12,396 bases of DNA, taken from the IMG/VR virus record IMGVR_UViG_2563366960_000005, positions 1 to 12,396 of that record, one strand, 5' to 3'. The DNA is from a virus (Duplodnaviria > Heunggongvirae > Uroviricota > Caudoviricetes). Both the position numbers and the translations under genes were made by a program. Positions within the stretch are counted from its first letter, which is position 1. Each line of letters starts with the position of its first letter. Under the pieces are notes generated by a model that saw nothing but the letters and a program-made list of their open reading frames with translations, ran no database searches and was not told the origin of the DNA. This document shows, one piece after another, positions 1,436-12,396 of this stretch.

Positions 1436-1584
1436 CGGCTGAATACCTCACTGATCGCTTCTTTGACTGCGCCAGTTACTGGCGCATTAATCCCTTCGAA
1501 TTGCTGAATAAGCCGATCAGTGAAATTCCCTTGCTGGTCAGTCAGGCAAACAGGATAGAGCAGGAGAAACGCACACATGGCTGA
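1166..1584 (+). CDS. Tail assembly chaperone, frameshift-extended form (lambda GT-like); -1 ribosomal frameshift at 1417-1423
   Basis: ORF 1402..1584 is in the -1 frame relative to 1166..1435. Slipping at T_TTT_TTC (1417-1423) gives the reading ...AGFF|PPGLTAEY..., which continues to the TGA at 1582-1584, overlapping the tape-measure ATG at 1577. Confidence 0.4.
1417..1423 (+). promoter_or_regulatory. Putative -1 programmed ribosomal frameshift slippery heptamer (T_TTT_TTC)
   Basis: The heptamer is in the X_XXY_YYZ register of the upstream chaperone frame and lies inside the overlap with the -1 frame ORF. Confidence 0.4.
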
Positions 1585-3409
1585 ATTTGAGCTTAAGGCG
1601 TTGATCACCGGTGTCGACAGGCTTTCTCCAGCGCTGTCGAAAATGCAAAAGAAAATCCGGGGATTTAAACGCCAGGCGGAAGAAGCGTCACAGGGTGGGC
1701 TGGCGCTTGGTGGCGGACTGGCAGCGGGTCTGACGCTTTCCCTGAAATCTTATGCCGATCAGGAAAACGCCGCCACCGGGCTGAAAGTCGCCATGATGGA
1801 TGCGAACGGCGAGGTTGGAAAGAGCTTTCAGGACATCAATAAACTGGCTATTGGCCTGGGTAACCAGCTACCCGGTACAACGGCTGATTTCCAGAACATG
1901 ATGCAGATGCTGGTGCGTCAGGGGATCCCGGCAGAAAACATTCTTGGCGGTGTGGGTAAAGCGACAGCTTATCTTGCGGTACAACTGAAAAAAACACCGG
2001 AAGCGGCTGCTGAGTTTGCTGCAAAGATGCAGGATGCTACCGGAACGGCGTCAGAAGACATGATGGGGCTGTTCGACACTATCCAGAAGGCGTTTTATCT
2101 GGGCGTTGACGATACCAACATGTTGTCCTTCTTCACTAAAACCAGTTCTGTTCTGAAGATGGTGAACAAGGACGGTCTTCAGGCTGCACAGAGCCTTGCC
2201 CCCATCAGCGTCATGATGGATCAGATGGGGATGAACGGGGAGTCGGCAGGTAATGCCCTGCGAAAAGTTATCCAGTCCGGATTAAGCGTTAAGAAAATCA
2301 GGGACGTCAATAAAGTCATGGCCCGCCAGAAACTCGGGGTACAGCTCGATTTTACTGACGGCAAAGGGAGTTTTGGCGGTCTTGATAACATGTTCAGGCA
2401 ACTGGCAAAGCTGCGAAAACTGACCGACGTTAAGCGAACAGGTGTACTTAAGGCAATATTTGGTGATGATGCCGAAACCCTTCAGGTGGTCAATGCACTA
2501 ATCGATAAAGGAAAGGATGGCTACGATCAGATCCAGCAGAAGATGAATAAACAGGCCAGCCTGAATAAACGTGTTCAGGCCCAGCTTGGTACGCTGTCCA
2601 ACCTGTGGGAGGCAATGACGGGGACCGCAACTAACGGCCTTGCGGCTATTGGCGGCGCATTTTCTGGTGACGCCAAAAATATCACGCAATGGCTGGGGGA
2701 GTTGGGGGAAAAATTCACGAAGTTTGCGGATGAAAATCCCCGGGTTATTCGCGGCGTCGTCGGGCTTGCTGCCGGTCTTGCGATTCTGAAACTGGGATTG
2801 ATGGGCGTTGGCGGTGCCATCAGTATTGTCAGCAGGATTATGTCGATGACGCCGATTGGCATGATTGCGACGGCGATAGCCCTGGCTGCGGGATTAATTA
2901 TCACTAACTGGGATGTTGTCGGACCTTATTTCAAGAAGCTCTGGGAAACCATTAGTCCTTATTTTGAGGCTGGCTGGGAACTTCTGAAGAAGGTTTTTGC
3001 CTGGTCGCCGCTGGGGATGGTGATCAATAACTGGGGACCGGTTGTTAAGTGGTTTCAGGATATGTGGGATAAGCTGAAGCCAATTATTGAGTGGTTTACC
3101 GACAGTTCCGGTGACACGGTCGATGCCATTAACTCGGCGCAGTGGGGCGCGGGTGCTTATGATGCTTATGGGACGGGAATACCGCCACGGGGATACACTC
3201 CTTATCCGGAGGTGGATCCGGCTCAGGCAAACAACGCCTCCGGTGCCACAGGCCCGAATCCTTTCATGATTAATAAAGCTACCGCGCCAAAAGTTGATGG
3301 TGAGATCAAGGTATCATTTATAAATATGCCATCAGGTATGCGGGTTACGGAAACACGCTCCAGTGGCATTGATATAAATCACGATGTTGGCTATACCCGA
3401 TTTTGGTAG
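1577..3409 (+). CDS. Phage tail tape measure protein
   Basis: 610-aa ORF right after the chaperone pair, with an AGGAG ribosome-binding site at about 1561-1565. It has a long Ala/Gly/Gln-rich helical N-terminal region, hydrophobic segments (GVVGLAAGLAILKLGLMGVGGAISIV...) and a C-terminal run of periodically spaced Trp/Phe (NWDVV...KLWETI...GWELL...FAWSP...NNWGP...KWFQDMWDKL...EWF), all typical of tape-measure proteins. Confidence 0.75.
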   Translation: MAEFELKALITGVDRLSPALSKMQKKIRGFKRQAEEASQGGLALGGGLAAGLTLSLKSYADQENAATGLKVAMMDANGEVGKSFQDINKLAIGLGNQLPGTTADFQNMMQMLVRQGIPAENILGGVGKATAYLAVQLKKTPEAAAEFAAKMQDATGTASEDMMGLFDTIQKAFYLGVDDTNMLSFFTKTSSVLKMVNKDGLQAAQSLAPISVMMDQMGMNGESAGNALRKVIQSGLSVKKIRDVNKVMARQKLGVQLDFTDGKGSFGGLDNMFRQLAKLRKLTDVKRTGVLKAIFGDDAETLQVVNALIDKGKDGYDQIQQKMNKQASLNKRVQAQLGTLSNLWEAMTGTATNGLAAIGGAFSGDAKNITQWLGELGEKFTKFADENPRVIRGVVGLAAGLAILKLGLMGVGGAISIVSRIMSMTPIGMIATAIALAAGLIITNWDVVGPYFKKLWETISPYFEAGWELLKKVFAWSPLGMVINNWGPVVKWFQDMWDKLKPIIEWFTDSSGDTVDAINSAQWGAGAYDAYGTGIPPRGYTPYPEVDPAQANNASGATGPNPFMINKATAPKVDGEIKVSFINMPSGMRVTETRSSGIDINHDVGYTRFW

Positions 3410-3500: not shown

Positions 3501-4031
3501 ATGAAAGGCTATATCACAGCAAGTGTAATTCTTGGAGCAGCGGCTATTTTTTCATCTCTCATAATCTCTGGCAACATCTCCTTTAAAGATGAACATATTA
3601 TTCAGTTATCTGGAGGAGCCATAAAACTTGGTGATGTTTATAAAGAAAATAAATTGATAAGTGCAAAGATTATTTTTCCAGATAATCAGGGTGAACAGAT
3701 TCTTGTTGTCGACGGCAATCCTGAAAACTTTAAGGAGGATTTTCAGGAGAAATTAAATAAAGTAATAAAAACTTTAAATGCGTCAAAGAAAAAAGATGAA
3801 GAGAAAGTTAGCCTGGATAATTTAAGTGTTGTTGAAGAGTCTAAACTAGAGCTCGTTTCTGCGGTGCGTTACTCTGCTCAGTATGTTCCTATGTTTACTC
3901 TGACGCTGGACAAAAAAGAAATTACCATGCCTAAAAATACGGTAATATTTCCATTTGCCAGCGATGAAACAGCTAAGTATTTAAATGAACAACAGCAAAA
4001 GTATAAAGATTCGTTGTTTCTGACTCGCTAA
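3501..4031 (+). CDS. Hypothetical moron protein with an N-terminal hydrophobic segment (possible signal peptide or membrane anchor)
   Basis: 176-aa ORF in a sharply AT-rich block between GC-richer tail genes, flanked by non-coding DNA on both sides and followed by a hairpin terminator. The N-terminus MKGYITASVILGAAAIFSSLIISG is hydrophobic; the rest is Lys/Glu/Asp-rich. No family recognised. Confidence 0.6.
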   Translation: MKGYITASVILGAAAIFSSLIISGNISFKDEHIIQLSGGAIKLGDVYKENKLISAKIIFPDNQGEQILVVDGNPENFKEDFQEKLNKVIKTLNASKKKDEEKVSLDNLSVVEESKLELVSAVRYSAQYVPMFTLTLDKKEITMPKNTVIFPFASDETAKYLNEQQQKYKDSLFLTR

Positions 4032-5421: not shown

Positions 5422-6497
5422 ACGACAATGTCACGCTACGGGTAAATGGCCGGGAGTGGAATGGCTGGACATCGGTGCGCATCGGTGCCGGTATTGAACG
5501 GCTGGCGCGGGATTTCAGCGTGGAGATCACCCGCCAGTGGCCGGGTGATGAGGGTATCACCACGCTTCAGCCGCGCATTAAAAATGGTTCAAAAGTGGAA
5601 GTGCTGATTGGTGATGAGCTGGTGATCACCGGCTGGGTGGAGGCGACCCCCGTTCGTTACGATGCCCGTTCGGTCAGCACCGGTATTGCCGGACGTAGTC
5701 TGACTGCTGACCTGATTGACTGTGCAGCCGAACCGACACAGTTTAACGGACGATCGCTGGTACAGATTGCGCAGGCGCTTGCTGCGCCTTTCGGCATTGA
5801 GGTGGTGAACAGCGATGCGCCGTCGGGTGTTATTCCGGATGTCCAGCCTGATCACGGTGAAACGGTGATCGAGGTGATCAACAAAATACTCGGTCAGCAG
5901 CAGGCGCTGGCTTATGACGACCCGCACGGCAGGCTGGTGATTGGTGGTATTGGCTCAACGCAGGCACATACCGCGCTGGTACTTGGGGAAAACATCCTTT
6001 CCTGTGATACGGAGAAGAGTATCCGGGAGCGGTTTTCAGTTTACCAGGTGGCGGGGCAGCGTGCCGGAAACGACGATGATTTCGGTGAGGCCACCACCAC
6101 CGCGCTGCGGGCCCGCACAGAGGATGCATTTATTGCCCGTTACCGTCCGATGTATATCAGGCAGACAGGGCAGGCTACGGGGGCAGGCTGTATTGCGCGT
6201 GCTGACTTTGAAGCCCGACAACGGGCGGCGCGGACGGATGAAACCACCTATGTGGTGCAGGGCTGGCGACAGGGTAACGGTACGCTGTGGCAGCCCAACC
6301 AGCGGGTGATTGTCTTCGATCCGGTCTGTGGTTTCGACAATACCGAACTGCTTGTCTCGGAAGTCACGTTTACTCAGGACCAGAATGGCACCCTGACGGA
6401 AATCCGTGTCGGCCCACCTGATGCTTATCTGCCTGAACCCGAAGCCCCCGGCGCGCGGAAAAAGAAAAAAGCCAGAGTACAGGAGGACCCGTTCTGA
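5418..6497 (+). CDS. Phage tail/baseplate hub protein (Mu gpP / gp44-like, P2 gpD-like)
   Basis: 359-aa ORF coupled by ATGA overlaps to the genes on either side. Size and position match the hub gene that follows gpN in Mu-like clusters. Confidence 0.65.
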   Translation: MNDNVTLRVNGREWNGWTSVRIGAGIERLARDFSVEITRQWPGDEGITTLQPRIKNGSKVEVLIGDELVITGWVEATPVRYDARSVSTGIAGRSLTADLIDCAAEPTQFNGRSLVQIAQALAAPFGIEVVNSDAPSGVIPDVQPDHGETVIEVINKILGQQQALAYDDPHGRLVIGGIGSTQAHTALVLGENILSCDTEKSIRERFSVYQVAGQRAGNDDDFGEATTTALRARTEDAFIARYRPMYIRQTGQATGAGCIARADFEARQRAARTDETTYVVQGWRQGNGTLWQPNQRVIVFDPVCGFDNTELLVSEVTFTQDQNGTLTEIRVGPPDAYLPEPEAPGARKKKKARVQEDPF

Positions 6498-7045
6498 TGA
6501 AGGCGATTGAAACCATACAGCGACAACTCCTCGGCCTGATTGGGCGGGCGGTGGTGAAAAGCATCAGTGCCGCCACGAAATGTCAGACCGTGGATGTGTC
6601 CCTGATTGCCGGTGAACCCAAAGCCGGGGTTGAACATCTTGAACCCTACGGTTTTACCGCAAGAGCAAACAGCGGTGCGGAAGCGGTGGTGTTGTTTCCG
6701 GATGGTGACCGTTCTCATGCGGTGGTTGTTACGGTGTCGGACCGGCGCTACCGCCTGAAAGGGCTGCAGACTGGTGAGGTGGCTGTCTATGACGATCAGG
6801 GGCAGTCCGTGACGCTGACCCGGGAGGGGATCGTGGTGGACGGTGCAGGTAAAACGATCACGTTTCGCAATTCACCTAAAGCACGTTTTGAAATGGACCT
6901 GGAAGTGACAGGACAGGTGAAAGACCTGTGCGACTCCAGCGGCACCACCATGTCAGCGATGCGGCTTGCCTATAACGGGCATCGTCACAGAGAGAACGGT
7001 CAGGGCAGTAACACCGACAAACCTGATAAAGCGATGGAGGCATGA
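6497..7045 (+). CDS. Baseplate assembly / central spike protein (gpV-like, Mu gp45-like)
   Basis: 182-aa ORF with gpV-like small beta-rich character (GEVAVYDDQGQSVTLTREGIVVDGAGKTITF). TGATG coupling upstream, ATGA coupling downstream. Confidence 0.65.
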   Translation: MKAIETIQRQLLGLIGRAVVKSISAATKCQTVDVSLIAGEPKAGVEHLEPYGFTARANSGAEAVVLFPDGDRSHAVVVTVSDRRYRLKGLQTGEVAVYDDQGQSVTLTREGIVVDGAGKTITFRNSPKARFEMDLEVTGQVKDLCDSSGTTMSAMRLAYNGHRHRENGQGSNTDKPDKAMEA

Positions 7046-7470
7046 TGGAACTGTGGCTGACGGTGAACGGTAAACGCACCTGCGCCAGCGCACCGCTGGA
7101 TCCGCTGACCCGCGCCGTGGTGATTTCCCTGTTTACCTGGCGGCGGGCGGAGCCTGATGACAACGCCGACGTCCCGATGGGATGGTGGGGGGATACCTAG
7201 CCTGCGGTACAGAATGACCGTTACGGCTCCCGACTGTGGCTGCTTCAGCGCAGCAAACTGACCAATCAGCTGGTGCTGACGGTAAGGGGGTATATCCGCG
7301 AATGCCTGCAATGGATGATTGATGACGGCGTGGTGTCCCGTATTGATCTGGATATCCGCCGCACCGGGATTAATGAACTGGGTAACAGTATCACCCTCTG
7401 GCGTCGTGACGGACCGGTAATGATTTCTTTTGATGATCTGTGGAGTGCGATAACGCATGGCGGACAGTGA
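7045..7470 (+). pseudogene. gp46-like baseplate protein (Mu gp46 family) interrupted by an in-frame amber codon at 7198-7200
   Basis: ATG at 7045 with a GGAGG ribosome-binding site at 7036-7040. The frame is open except for a single TAG at codon 52 (...[27 protein letters not shown]...) and continues in the same frame to the TGA at 7468-7470. The ORF track's 7273..7470 ORF is simply the downstream part of this frame. Confidence 0.55.
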
Positions 7471-8515
7471 ATTTCAGCGCCCGACGCTGGCAGAAAATAT
7501 CAGTATGCTCCGTAACGATTTATTCGCCAGGCTGGACGTCAGCGACACGCTCCGGCGCATGGATGAAGACGTGCGGGCAAAGGTGTATGCGGCGGCGCTG
7601 CATACGGTTTACGGGTACATCGATTATCTGGCAATGAACATGCTGCCTGACCTGTGCGATGAGTCCTGGCTGGCGCGACATGCTGCGATGAAACGGTGTC
7701 CGCGCAAGGGGGCCACGGCTGCCAGCGGGTATATGCGCTGGGAAGGTGTCAGCGATGGCCTGAAGGTGACCGCCGGGAGTGTTATTCAGCGCGATGACCT
7801 GGTTCAGTACACGGCAACTGCCGATGCAACCAGCTCCGGTGGTGTCCTGCGCGTGCCGATCGCCTGCTCAAGTGCAGGCGCGGTCGGTAACGCTGACGAC
7901 GGTACGGCATTAATCCTGGTCACGCCGGTGAATGGTCTGCCGTCTTCCGGTGTGGCTGACACCCTGACAGGCGGATTTGATACTGAAGAGCTGGAAACGT
8001 GGCGCGCCCGCGTCATTGAGCGGTATTACTGGACGCCGCAGGGCGGGGCTGACGGGGACTATGTCGTCTGGGCTAAAGAAGTGCCCGGCATTACCCGCGC
8101 ATGGACATACCGTCACTGGATGGGAACGGGAACTGTCGGTGTGATGATTGCCAGCAGTGACCTGATTAATCCCATTCCGGAAGAATCAACGGAAACGGCG
8201 GCAAGACAACATATCGGGCCACTGGCCCCGGTGGCAGGCTCTGATTTGTATGTGTTCAGGCCGGTGGCACATACGGTGGATTTTCATATCCGCGTGACGC
8301 CGGACACACCGGAAATACGGGCTGCCATCACCGCGGAGTTGCGTTCGTTCCTGCTGCGTGATGGTTATCCGCAGGGAGAACTGAAGGTATCGCGTATCAG
8401 TGAGGCGATTTCCGGTGCGAACGGGGAATACAGCCATCAGTTGCTTGCACCGGCAGACAATATCTCCATTGCAAAAAATGAACTGGCGGTACTGGGGACG
8501 ATTTCATGGACGTGA
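7457..8515 (+). CDS. Baseplate J-like protein (Mu gp47-like)
   Basis: 352-aa ORF, translationally coupled to its neighbours. Size and position after gp46 fit the baseplate J family. Confidence 0.7.
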
Positions 8516-9090
8516 CAAACGATGATTACATCCGTCTGTTGTCGGCACTGTTGCCCCCCGGTCCGGCGTGGTCAGCCAGCGATCCGTCGATTGCCGGTGC
8601 GGCACCGTCATTAACCCGCGTTCATCAGCGTGCGGATGCCCTGATGCGGGAGCTGGATCCGCGCACCACCACTGAACTGATAAACCGCTGGGAGCGTCTG
8701 TGCGGTCTGCCGGATGAATGTATTCCCGCAGGGACACAGACCCTTCGCCAGCGTCAGCAACGGCTGGATGCGAAGGTTAACCTGGCGGGCGGCATCAACG
8801 AGAATTTTTATCTTGCACAGCTTGCTGCCCTGGGCAGACCAGACGCTACCATCACGCGATACGACAAAAGCACGTTCACCTGCTCATCGGCCTGTACTGA
8901 CGCGGTGAATGCGCCGGAATGGCGGTATTACTGGCAGGTCAACATGCCAGCCGCCACAAACACCACCTGGATGACATGTGGCGATCCCTGTGATTCCGCA
9001 CTGCGTATCTGGGGCGACACCGTTGTCGAATGTGTGCTTAACAAACTCTGTCCGTCTCATACCTACGTAATTTTTAAATATCCGGAGTAA
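8506..9090 (+). CDS. Phage tail protein (Mu gp48-like / DUF2313-like, P2 gpI-like)
   Basis: 194-aa ORF between the J-like gene and the tail fiber gene, the conserved position of gp48/gpI-type wedge proteins. Confidence 0.6.
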
Positions 9091-9864: not shown

Positions 9865-10466
9865 TGGATAACGCAGTATTAAATAGCGAGTTTATTGCCA
9901 CGAAGGCGGGGAATATTACCGTCTATAACTACGATGGTGAAACTCGGGAATATATTTCTGCATCAACTGAATATCTTGCAGTGGGTGTCGGTATTCCAGC
10001 ATATTCCTGTTTAGACGCTCCTGGTACATATAAGGCTGGTTATACAATTTGCCGTTCTGTAGATTTAAATTCATGGGAATATGTGCCAGACCATCGCGGT
10101 GAAATCGTCTATAACACCGAAACGGGAGATGCCAAAGAAATCACAGCACCGGGTGATTACCCCGAAAATACAACCACTATCGCCCCATTAACGCCATACG
10201 ATAAATGGGATGGTGAGAAATGGGTGACCGATACTGAGGCACAGCATAGCGCCGCAGTAGACGCGGCAGAAGCACAGCGTCAGTCACTGATTGATGCTGC
10301 AATGGCTTCCATCAGTCTGATTCAGCTGAAATTACAGGCCGGACGGAAGTTGATGCAGGCAGAAACAACCCGGCTTAACGCTGTGCTGGATTACATTGAC
10401 GCGGTGACGGCAACAAATACCAGCACAGCGCCGGATGTCATCTGGCCTGAACTGCCGGAGGCGTAG
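9864..10466 (+). CDS. Tail fiber assembly chaperone (Mu U / Tfa-like)
   Basis: 200-aa ORF with a TAATG overlap to the fiber gene. Its C-terminal motif ...LDYIDAVTATNTSTAPDVIWPELPEA is shared with the convergent paralogue. Confidence 0.7.
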   Translation: MDNAVLNSEFIATKAGNITVYNYDGETREYISASTEYLAVGVGIPAYSCLDAPGTYKAGYTICRSVDLNSWEYVPDHRGEIVYNTETGDAKEITAPGDYPENTTTIAPLTPYDKWDGEKWVTDTEAQHSAAVDAAEAQRQSLIDAAMASISLIQLKLQAGRKLMQAETTRLNAVLDYIDAVTATNTSTAPDVIWPELPEA

Positions 10467-10881
10467 GCCATTCAATATCTGGCGCCCCGGAAGTATCGAC
10501 CAGTTCCAGTGCGTCCAGATAATCCAGCCACAAATTATATTGCGCCAGCTCGTCCCCCTTCAGGCGACCAATAGCTGCTTTACCAGGCCATTGCCTACTG
10601 TTCATGTATTCGTTGGCATGGTTAATCAATAATTGCCTCTCTGATTCGGCCTGTTCAATAAGTTCCTCATGTGATGGTGGAGGTATTTCAGCCCATGTGG
10701 GAAAACCATTTTCCCCTGCAACTCGGATTTTCCCTTGTGGCGGTTCCGCCATATATTTTACAGAAATGTCATCAGGAATATCTAATGCATCAGCAGGCCA
10801 TGTTCCATTTACTTCATAAGTGTTTTTTAAATTAACAGCATAAAAAGCATTTTCCGAAGGGGAATAAATATATTGATTCAT
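10438..10881 (-). CDS. Alternative tail fiber assembly chaperone (U'-like)
   Basis: 147-aa minus-strand ORF whose 3' end overlaps the 3' end of the + strand chaperone. Its C-terminus ...LDYLDALELVDTSGAPDIEWPTPP parallels the U-like C-terminus. It starts 1 nt after the stop of the alternative fiber segment. Confidence 0.7.
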   Translation of the reverse strand: MNQYIYSPSENAFYAVNLKNTYEVNGTWPADALDIPDDISVKYMAEPPQGKIRVAGENGFPTWAEIPPPSHEELIEQAESERQLLINHANEYMNSRQWPGKAAIGRLKGDELAQYNLWLDYLDALELVDTSGAPDIEWPTPPAVQAR

Positions 10882-10882
10882 A

Positions 10883-11232
10883 TTATCTTCCTATTGCGAT
10901 AATCATAGTTCCATACAAACCATTTCCGGTTGATACTTTTAAAGTTACTGATGTCCTTGTTGTCGTGTACCCCATAAGTTTAAAGGTCGGAGCAGCCGTT
11001 AATGAGCCATCTGACCATAAGGCACTAACAGCTAGTGCGCCTGAAGGAAATGCAATAGGGAAATTACCTGTAGTTCCGTTAGTGTCCGCCCCATAAACAT
11101 TCATCGAAAACATTTGGACAATATGACCACTTGGTAACTGAAACCAGTTTTTGCCAGATGGAAATGCAGACATATCTGGTATCTGATTTTCCCCTGTTCC
11201 CACATTCCGTTTTGCCGCTTCTCCCAAACCAA
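10883..11232 (-). CDS. Alternative tail fiber C-terminal segment (Sv'-like); has no start of its own and would be expressed only after inversion fuses it to the constant N-terminus
   Basis: Minus-strand frame open from the crossover site at 11219-11244 to the TAA at 10883-10885. Next to the crossover it encodes ...GLGE, identical to the residues encoded at the other crossover site in the + strand fiber gene. Confidence 0.6.
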
Positions 11233-11244
11233 CGTTTATGAAAA
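11219..11244 (+). promoter_or_regulatory. hix/gix-like invertase crossover site, right (TTCTCCCAAACC-AA-CGTTTATGAAAA)
   Basis: Inverted copy of the half-site plus core of the 9371-9396 site. It lies about 55 bp upstream of the invertase ATG, the canonical position for such sites. Confidence 0.55.
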
Positions 11245-11298
11245 TGCAGAAATAACGAGCAAATGGCATCATTCCTGCTTTTGCCAGGGGGAGCTACC

Positions 11299-11526
11299 AT
11301 GCTTATTGGGTATGTACGCGTATCAACAAATGACCGGAACACCGCTCTGCAACGTAATTCGTTGAACTGTGCAGAATGTGAGTTGATTTTGAAGATAAAA
11401 TCAGTGGCACAAAGTTCAATAAAAAATATACCTGACACATTATACGAAGAAGATTTTATGGTTTTTTCTGTTGATTTTTTAACATGGCTGCATGGATACA
11501 GATATGACGAAGGTAATGTAGAGTAG
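11299..11526 (+). pseudogene. Truncated serine DNA invertase (Gin/Pin/Hin family); only about 31 N-terminal codons are retained
   Basis: ATG at 11299 with a GGGGGAG ribosome-binding site at 11286-11292. The encoded MLIGYVRVSTNDRNTALQRNSLNCAECELI matches the invertase N-terminus including the catalytic-serine region. Homology ends at about 11390; the frame then continues through AT-rich unrelated sequence to the TAG at 11524-11526, giving roughly 75 aa instead of the roughly 190 aa expected. Confidence 0.6.
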
Positions 11527-11574: not shown

Positions 11575-12396
11575 TTATCTTACAGCTGGTGTTTGAGGTG
11601 GCTTCGTTTTCGTTTTTTTCACGCCCTTGTTTTTTACTATTTCCAGTGCCCTTTTCTGAAGGTCTACTCCTGATGGATAGAGCACGTTGAGAATGTGCTC
11701 AGTCAGTCGGTACGCATCAAACAGATCACTTTGAGTTAAACCTGATGCTGCGTGACTCCCTTCATTACCTAACCACTTAACAGCAAATAAAAGTCCATCT
11801 AACTTTCCAAATGTTTTTTTTCTATGTGCAGCTATGGTAATTCGTTCATGAAGAGACATGAGGCACCGCTCGCGCTTGGACTTACCCTTCCGCTTAATTA
11901 ATTTGTATTTTGGTATATTGTATTCAGATAAAAGATTCTCTATTGCCATTCTAACCTTGTTTGCTGCTGAGCTTGGCGAAAGTAGTGTCAGTGAAAATGC
12001 TTCTTGCAAATTCTCATATACTTCAGATGGACATGTTGTGGGGATATCTATGTACTGTAGCGGAGGGATAAATACTTTGGGGATGTAATAGCTAAAGTAC
12101 TCCTGTATCTGTTCATCTCGATCATTTACAGTAATATCCATCTCAACATAACCAGTGCCTGAGCAGACGACAACTTCCTCGCATTCATGATTTTCGCATA
12201 CCAGAACCGCAGTAAAAACCTCTTTAATCAGTTCTGTATCGGAGCCGAGAATCTCAATAAGATTATGTGATTCACTAGTTACCTTTGCATAAAATTTTTC
12301 TTTATTTAATTTCAAACTGCTTCTTCCGCAACTTGGGCACGGGTATGTCACGTAGTCATTTACTTTGAAAGGTTTACCAATTGAAAACTTATCCAT
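11575..12396 (-). CDS. Hypothetical protein with N-terminal Cys-rich putative zinc ribbon and C-terminal DUF4145/HEPN-like region; candidate defence or abortive-infection cargo
   Basis: 273-aa minus-strand ORF in AT-rich DNA; its ATG is the last three bases of the window, so its promoter is outside. Cysteines at C20-x2-C23 and C67-x4-C72 (plus C78). The C-terminal third has SPSSAANKVRMAIENLLSEY ... KWLGNEGSHAAS, resembling the R/K-x-x-G-N-x-x-x-H signature I associate with DUF4145/HEPN-like domains. Ends in a Lys-rich tail. Family assignment is unverified. Confidence 0.55.
   Translation of the reverse strand: MDKFSIGKPFKVNDYVTYPCPSCGRSSLKLNKEKFYAKVTSESHNLIEILGSDTELIKEVFTAVLVCENHECEEVVVCSGTGYVEMDITVNDRDEQIQEYFSYYIPKVFIPPLQYIDIPTTCPSEVYENLQEAFSLTLLSPSSAANKVRMAIENLLSEYNIPKYKLIKRKGKSKRERCLMSLHERITIAAHRKKTFGKLDGLLFAVKWLGNEGSHAASGLTQSDLFDAYRLTEHILNVLYPSGVDLQKRALEIVKNKGVKKTKTKPPQTPAVR

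Follow-up and report, generated by a model that had tools for sequence, protein, structure and literature searches.

The DNA analysed here is a stretch of 12,396 nucleotides, referred to throughout as the window, and it is the tail and baseplate module of an SfV-like Escherichia coli prophage, a type which combines an HK97-type head with a Mu-type contractile tail. The window is an exact substring of scaffold KB733395.1 of assembly GCA_000351665.1, in which window position 7199 corresponds to record position 101333. Its tail genes are approximately 97.5% identical to those of SfV/SfII/SfI-like phage, and related modules are found in 1402 of 5426 complete E. coli genomes. In E. coli PSUO2, the nearest of these genomes, the prophage occupies about 37 kb between tRNA-Thr/proA and a DMT transporter gene and looks essentially complete, with an integrase, repressors, Q, lysis genes, terminase, portal, protease and capsid. 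The prophage of the source strain was inspected over the window and up to 3 kb upstream of it, and its completeness was judged from PSUO2. The first base of the window (position 94135 of KB733395.1) follows a run of N inside the tail-sheath gene, where the ‘sheath’ ORF at 34–810 is the C-terminal part only and gene callers split the sheath into pieces of 234 and 269 aa; this split is an assembly gap and not a lesion.

The baseplate genes lie on the plus strand in the order gp44–gp45–gp46–gp47–gp48, and Pfam matches of the neighbours, PGAP and the SfV annotation all place gp46 between a gp45-like spike gene and the gp47 and gp48 wedge genes. The three genes flanking it are intact, these being the gp45-like spike or baseplate assembly protein V at 6497–7045 (Pfam Phage_Mu_Gp45 and annotation), the gp47 or Baseplate_J wedge protein 2 at 7457–8515 (Pfam Baseplate_J, E 1.9e-52) and the gp48 or YmfQ wedge protein 3 at 8506–9090 (Pfam Phage_Mu_Gp48). 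The gp46-family gene itself, a homologue of Mu gp46 and SfV orf18 (baseplate wedge protein 1) recognised by translation, Pfam, PHROG and a sequence match to the solved Mu gp46, spans 7045–7470 and is interrupted. Its frame has 141 codons and a terminal TGA at 7468–7470, and on translation the only internal stop is an amber TAG at 7198–7200, in codon 52. What remains of the product is an N-terminal fragment of 51 of the 141 residues, ending directly after a GWWGD motif and on record as ELE52348.1, phage tail protein [Escherichia coli]; at the same coordinates in PSUO2, PGAP has an intact gene named ‘phage GP46 family protein’.

Initiation signals and junctions with the neighbours can be read directly from the DNA. 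A Shine–Dalgarno sequence, GGAGG, is located at 7036–7040, the gp45 stop TGA at 7043–7045 overlaps the gp46 ATG at 7045–7047 (TGATG), and the start of gp47 overlaps the normal end of gp46 by 14 nt (7457–7470). An earlier sequence-only reading of this DNA had described a conserved gp46-family baseplate gene with a good ribosome-binding site and start, coupled on both sides and open for 141 codons apart from one TAG, and this description was borne out by the sequence itself, by retranslation and by the Pfam matches of both halves given below. Two competing frames were rejected. A start at the upstream ATG 7042 would give a 52-residue product, which is not on record, and the 7045 start is the one that fits PGAP and the gene calls; an antisense ORF of 152 aa at 7000–7458 is without a Pfam match and was set aside as a chance frame in GC-rich sequence.

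When the stop is repaired, the protein matches Pfam GP46 (PF07409) over profile positions 1–100 of 101 (E 2.2e-32), while the N-terminal fragment alone covers positions 1–35 (E 1.9e-8) and the C-terminal fragment positions 37–100 (E 3.1e-19). As both halves match one Pfam domain, this is one interrupted gene and not a chance open frame. There is also a match to PHROG 180, ‘baseplate wedge subunit’ (E 1.8e-54), and to the structure of Mu gp46 (9ki1 chain A), with E 5.8e-14 from the single sequence and E 1.2e-39 over the full length from a profile of 71 sequences. Mu gp46 and SfV orf18 share with the window's copy PF07409, PHROG 180, the gp44–gp48 gene order and the GWWGD motif, and SfV orf18 is identical to it at 140 of 141 residues after stop repair; unlike both of them, the window's copy stops at codon 52 and encodes the first 51 residues only. 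By profile, by relationship to Mu gp46 and by position the gene belongs to the GP46 family, its frame is interrupted, and 7045–7470 is a pseudogene copy of a member of the Mu gp46/SfV orf18 family. The Mu cryo-EM structure shows gp46, as baseplate wedge protein 1, seated on the tube initiator with one copy per wedge, six in all, and its two-stranded beta-sheet pairs with the first sheath ring and initiates sheath assembly (PMC11915804). It is regarded as the counterpart of T4 gp25, P2 gpW and the T6SS protein TssE (PMC6300606).

A stop in this position could also mean that the family naturally consists of two short genes divided here, a reading for which we find nothing beyond the stop itself. 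The stop falls within a single Pfam domain, Mu gp46 was solved as one chain, and the 120 nearest protein clusters together with 71 diverse homologues (32–82% identical to the query, with only one of them above 48%) are continuous at column 52; the alignments refute a natural split gene, and we consider this reading essentially untenable. Column 52 lies directly after the near-invariant G-W-W-G-D motif. In the 120 nearest clusters it holds Trp (108) or Phe (12), and in the 71 diverse homologues it is far more variable, with Y 21, F 17, L 9, W 6, V 5, I 4, T 4, A 1 and a gap in 4, Mu gp46 having Tyr and phage Milano gp28 Phe.

The nearest relatives of the window are four complete genomes including PSUO2, with four differences over 12,396 bases, followed by a fifth which is one mismatch worse. 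PSUO2 differs from the window at 7199 and at three clustered synonymous sites, which leaves 7199 as the sole non-synonymous difference. PSUO2 and F1267 have G at position 7199 where the aligned window has A, a G-to-A transition which converts TGG (Trp52) to TAG; codon 52 of SfV orf18 is likewise TGG. The sequence-only reading had proposed a recent single-base nonsense change, most simply from a Tyr or Gln codon. The first part of this proposal agrees well with the few differences from PSUO2 over the window and with the unsplit alignments, but the ancestral codon has to be corrected to Trp, which is encoded by TGG in PSUO2, F1267 and SfV and prevails among the near relatives. The Tyr and Phe that prevail at this column in distant homologues are variation within the family and not the source of the TAG.

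The three synonymous differences fall in the tape-measure gene (1577–3409) at 1942, 1945 and 1948, all third codon positions, where the window has ATT/CTT/GGC and PSUO2 has ATC/CTG/GGT. The version in the window occurs exactly in 363 E. coli records. Artificial editing or error was rejected as the origin of this cluster, since it is synonymous and a natural allele, and the patch looks like a very short recombination or gene conversion event between related prophages.

The changed base lies within a former Dcm site at 7196–7200, which reads CCTGG in all relatives and CCTAG in the window; on the minus strand, the partner of the G at 7199 is the inner C of CCAGG. Dcm acts on CCWGG and methylates the inner C of both strands. 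To our knowledge dcm is near-universal in E. coli, and Dcm is probably active in the source strain. The gene has a second Dcm site, CCTGG over Trp32 at 7136–7140, which is intact in the window and provides an internal replicate of the hotspot. CCWGG is a documented hotspot of G:C>A:T change in E. coli (PMC13250602; PMC10710837). In the mechanism that we propose, the 5-methylcytosine on the minus strand at CCAGG would deaminate to T, and a T escaping Vsr repair would turn CCTGG into CCTAG and Trp52 into an amber codon. The lesion would then lie at a mutational hotspot and would be expected to arise repeatedly in E. coli populations.

A 61-mer carrying the TAG had no exact match in 1099 E. coli records (best match 60/61). 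Further empty pattern scans had at first glance pointed to a private or artefactual allele: a TAG 26-mer was found neither in the IMG/VR viral contigs, at least 120 of which contain the TGG 26-mer, nor in JGI metagenome contigs, and a TAG 39-mer was not found in species-representative genomes. This suggestion was overturned by an exact-protein look-up in a larger public assembly collection, in which the exact 51-aa product is listed in 79 blocks. All 10 of the 10 places among the matches listed have an internal TAG52, and the 1-kb haplotypes around these 10 are all different, the median number of pairwise differences being 16; one TAG52 contig was seen in 12 samples, which indicates that the allele is heritable. 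Four distinct alignable TAG haplotypes differ mutually by 48–60 sites over the 2-kb gp45–gp47 region, while each of five TAG haplotypes (the window and these four) has a TGG counterpart in complete genomes with 0–4 other differences, as calculated from bit scores. For every TAG haplotype tested the nearest haplotype is a TGG one and not another TAG one. That the TAG haplotypes are mutually distant, and each near to a TGG twin, argues for repeated independent origin and against one old allele.

The same observations bear on the question of whether the strain really has TGG, with the TAG existing in the deposited scaffold only as a base-calling or assembly error. The A at 7199 is given as deposited in a draft scaffold with N gaps, the TAG allele is missing from all complete E. 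coli genomes, and a single-base difference is the smallest possible error. Such an error is nevertheless quite unlikely, as many independent assemblies have this TAG too, among them the contig seen in 12 samples, and the contig carrying the window is itself reported in 2 samples. The transition is moreover the one biologically expected at the site, and since the three remaining differences from PSUO2 represent a natural allele, the assembly shows no general noise in this region.

To place the recurrence of TAG52 in context, truncated products from other codons one transition away from a stop were tested, and places with a genuine internal stop were counted among the matches listed (at most 10 places per codon, on the 24 longest contigs); these are counts of assemblies and haplotypes and not of proven independent events. 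At the Dcm codons, at least 10 internal-stop places were found for each of gp46 W32 (10 TAG), gp46 W52 (10 TAG) and gp47 W71 (9 TAG, 1 TGA), and tube W92 had 6 among the matches listed (6 TAG). For W32 the internal TAG was present in 10 of the 10 places among the matches listed, on 9 haplotypes. The non-Dcm codons gave, again among the matches listed, 5 places for gp46 W47 (5 TAG, on 5 haplotypes), 1 for gp46 W48 (1 TGA), 5 for gp46 W65 (3 TAG, 2 TGA), 0 for gp46 Q56, 1 for gp46 Q75 (1 TAG) and 1 for gp47 W95 (1 TAG), the remaining listed places for these control codons being contig-end partial genes. Each of the four Dcm codons exceeds each of the six controls among the matches listed (exact one-sided Mann–Whitney p = 0.0048). 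The ratio of TAG to TGA among the matches listed is 35:1 at the Dcm Trp codons versus 9:3 at the other codons, a bias that hypermutability confined to the G opposite the methylated C would produce. Dcm targets make up 10 of about 240 transition-to-stop codons in the module, and the single nonsense change of the window falls on one of them; four of the ten were checked, and all four are repeatedly mutated in public assemblies. An ancestral CCWGG with a transition at the paired G, recurrence, and an excess over non-Dcm sites are thus all found at this locus, as they should be at a Dcm hotspot.

Counting genuine stops matters here, and raw contig counts of truncated prefixes (42 contigs for Q75 vs 52 for W52) were dropped because contig ends inflate the controls: 9 of 10 Q75 places and 10 of 10 Q56 places among the matches listed are contig ends and not stops. 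Draft contigs share a small number of break points within gp46, gp47 and the tube gene (in gp46, codons 55 and 74 are two after which they break), and databases consequently contain many ‘partial’ proteins of the same length which resemble nonsense alleles. The breaks are probably repeat-induced graph breaks between co-resident related prophages. This constitutes a technical trap, as short database entries labelled ‘partial’ for gp46, gp47 and the tube protein mostly end where a contig ends and not at a nonsense codon.

The control codons also show that non-Dcm Trp codons are mutated, from which it follows that part of the recurrence comes simply from how very heavily this widespread and weakly constrained prophage has been sampled, and that nonsense decay of this prophage is common in general. 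The recurrence might in principle come from selection for the loss of tail function, as in domestication or escape from costly virion production, and not from a hotspot. Prophage inactivation can benefit the host, and nonsense alleles are present at every Trp codon tested in gp46, as well as in gp47 and the tube gene. Selection would not, however, favour Dcm-site codons over neighbouring Trp codons of the same gene, nor would it favour TAG over TGA so strongly, by the 35:1 among the matches listed, at Dcm codons only. TAG52 is also rare, being carried by about 52 contigs when one intact allele alone has more than 1000, and it occupies tip positions, on haplotypes that do not otherwise differ from intact ones. 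We accordingly hold selection to be an unlikely source of the recurrence, and Dcm-site comparisons of this kind can help to tell mutation-driven from selection-driven prophage decay.

Lesions of other kinds were also encountered in gp46. In-frame fusions join the gp45 N-terminus to gp46 from about residue 20, one of them being present on 11 contigs, some copies (E. coli ECZU51) have a compensated double frameshift which replaces residues 32–48 and destroys GWWGD, and another copy is fused to an unrelated N-terminus; the proteins with these lesions have 227, 140 and 201 aa. Alleles with the amber at W32 are predicted by gene callers to restart at Met45, giving a 97-aa product in which most of the GP46 domain is preserved, and on the strength of this prediction these alleles, unlike the W52 allele of the window, might retain partial function.

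Turning to the consequences of the stop, the remaining fragment ends after GWWGD and is without about two thirds of the domain, which makes TAG52 probably a null allele. Baseplate wedges would be non-functional, assembly of the baseplate and tail would be blocked, and infectious tailed particles would not be made by the prophage. The baseplate region is single-copy in the five closest genomes, making trans-complementation unlikely. With the new stop at 7200, the 256 nt upstream of the gp47 start (7201–7456) are no longer translated, and gp47 expression may therefore drop through lost translational coupling, a polar effect that would add to the loss of gp46. Among the options of the sequence-only reading was a lesion that disables the tail module, and with 51 of 141 residues left and the domain cut this stands as the most economical reading, the phenotype being one that we infer.

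Expression of the gene could persist if the amber codon were suppressed by a tRNA, if basal UAG read-through sufficed, or if re-initiation gave a second fragment that assembled with the first. In favour of this, the frame beyond the stop is without any defect and the gene has coupling at both ends. Any recent mutation would, however, leave the frame behind it open, and the 12.4 kb are near-identical to intact relatives. No tRNA gene is present in the 12.4-kb window, and a UAG followed by C, as here, is a poor context for suppression. The first in-frame restart codon after the TAG is GTG at 7273, which has no Shine–Dalgarno sequence, and starting there would divide the one domain behind GWWGD. 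No homologue shares the stop: the conservation expected of programmed read-through is absent from the alignments, with a sense codon in the 120 near clusters and no stop in the 71 distant homologues. Continued expression by any of these routes is in our view highly improbable.

The account that we favour, and consider likely, is that of a recent spontaneous null mutation at a Dcm hotspot, which would leave an SfV-like prophage that otherwise looks whole without baseplates. Coulondre and Miller reportedly found amber hotspots at CCAGG sequences of lacI, and Lieb is said to have studied amber mutations in lambda cI, work which led to very-short-patch repair. The lacI and lambda cI ambers share with TAG52 the G:C-to-A:T change at the methylated C of CCWGG, which gives TAG and strikes the same nucleotide repeatedly. 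They differ in that the methylated C here is on the non-coding strand, so that Trp (TGG) and not Gln (CAG) is lost, and in that the present evidence comes from natural populations and public assemblies and not from a selection experiment, Dcm dependence being deduced from the pattern of mutated sites. A further comparison is with e14, a defective E. coli prophage with Mu-type baseplate remnants (ymfP, ymfQ, stfE, tfaE, pin). In e14-like cryptic prophages the same kind of tail module is inactivated in the lysogen, and the annotation here uses the names ymfQ and tfaE; in contrast to e14, however, the present case is a single point lesion in an otherwise complete-looking prophage of ~37 kb and not a deletion remnant.

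A more speculative extension is that Dcm-site Trp ambers of tail genes serve as a quasi-reversible switch at the population level, or make expression dependent on a suppressor. The ambers would form at a high rate by 5mC deamination, and Vsr very-short-patch correction of CTAGG/CCTGG heteroduplexes would restore TGG during recombination with related prophages, whether co-resident or incoming. Were this so, lineages would toggle between tail-proficient and tail-defective prophages, although we think it very unlikely.

TAG52 is ordinary, recurrent prophage decay and not a recoding signal, and it provides no evidence for recoding, amber suppression or a split gene. For annotation, the appropriate entry for 7045–7470 is a pseudogene with an internal stop, and the prophage is best recorded as probably tail-defective. 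More generally, Dcm sites over in-frame TGG or CAG are predictable weak points of E. coli prophage genes. A gp46-family pseudogene and a Dcm-hotspot amber are both already known kinds of feature, and the population-level recurrence described here is a neat natural example that will be unsurprising to the specialist.

Three further features of the window concern the content of the prophage outside the baseplate genes. At 11263–11526 on the plus strand there is a remnant of a serine invertase, with a weak Resolvase N-terminal match (E 0.005), which PGAP labels in PSUO2 as ‘recombinase family protein, frameshifted; incomplete’. It adjoins an inverted second cassette of tail-fibre C-terminus and assembly protein at 10438–11272 on the minus strand, and the whole of 10438–11526 looks like a frozen invertible fibre segment of the Mu G/e14 P type, in which case the prophage lineage already bears one older lesion. 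Between the tape-measure and DNA-circularisation genes lies a 176-aa ORF (3501–4031, plus strand), which matches PHROG 5485 (unknown function) only and had no Pfam or PADLOC match. Several related prophages are missing this ORF and have a 611-aa tape measure followed directly by the circularisation gene, and it looks like a moron inserted in the tail operon. Finally, the right end of the prophage carries a DUF4145 protein gene (11575–12396, minus strand), which has no PADLOC match and belongs to PHROG 1305, ‘DNA binding protein’; in the source strain it is followed by two small ORFs and then by host genes, and it is possibly a cargo gene.
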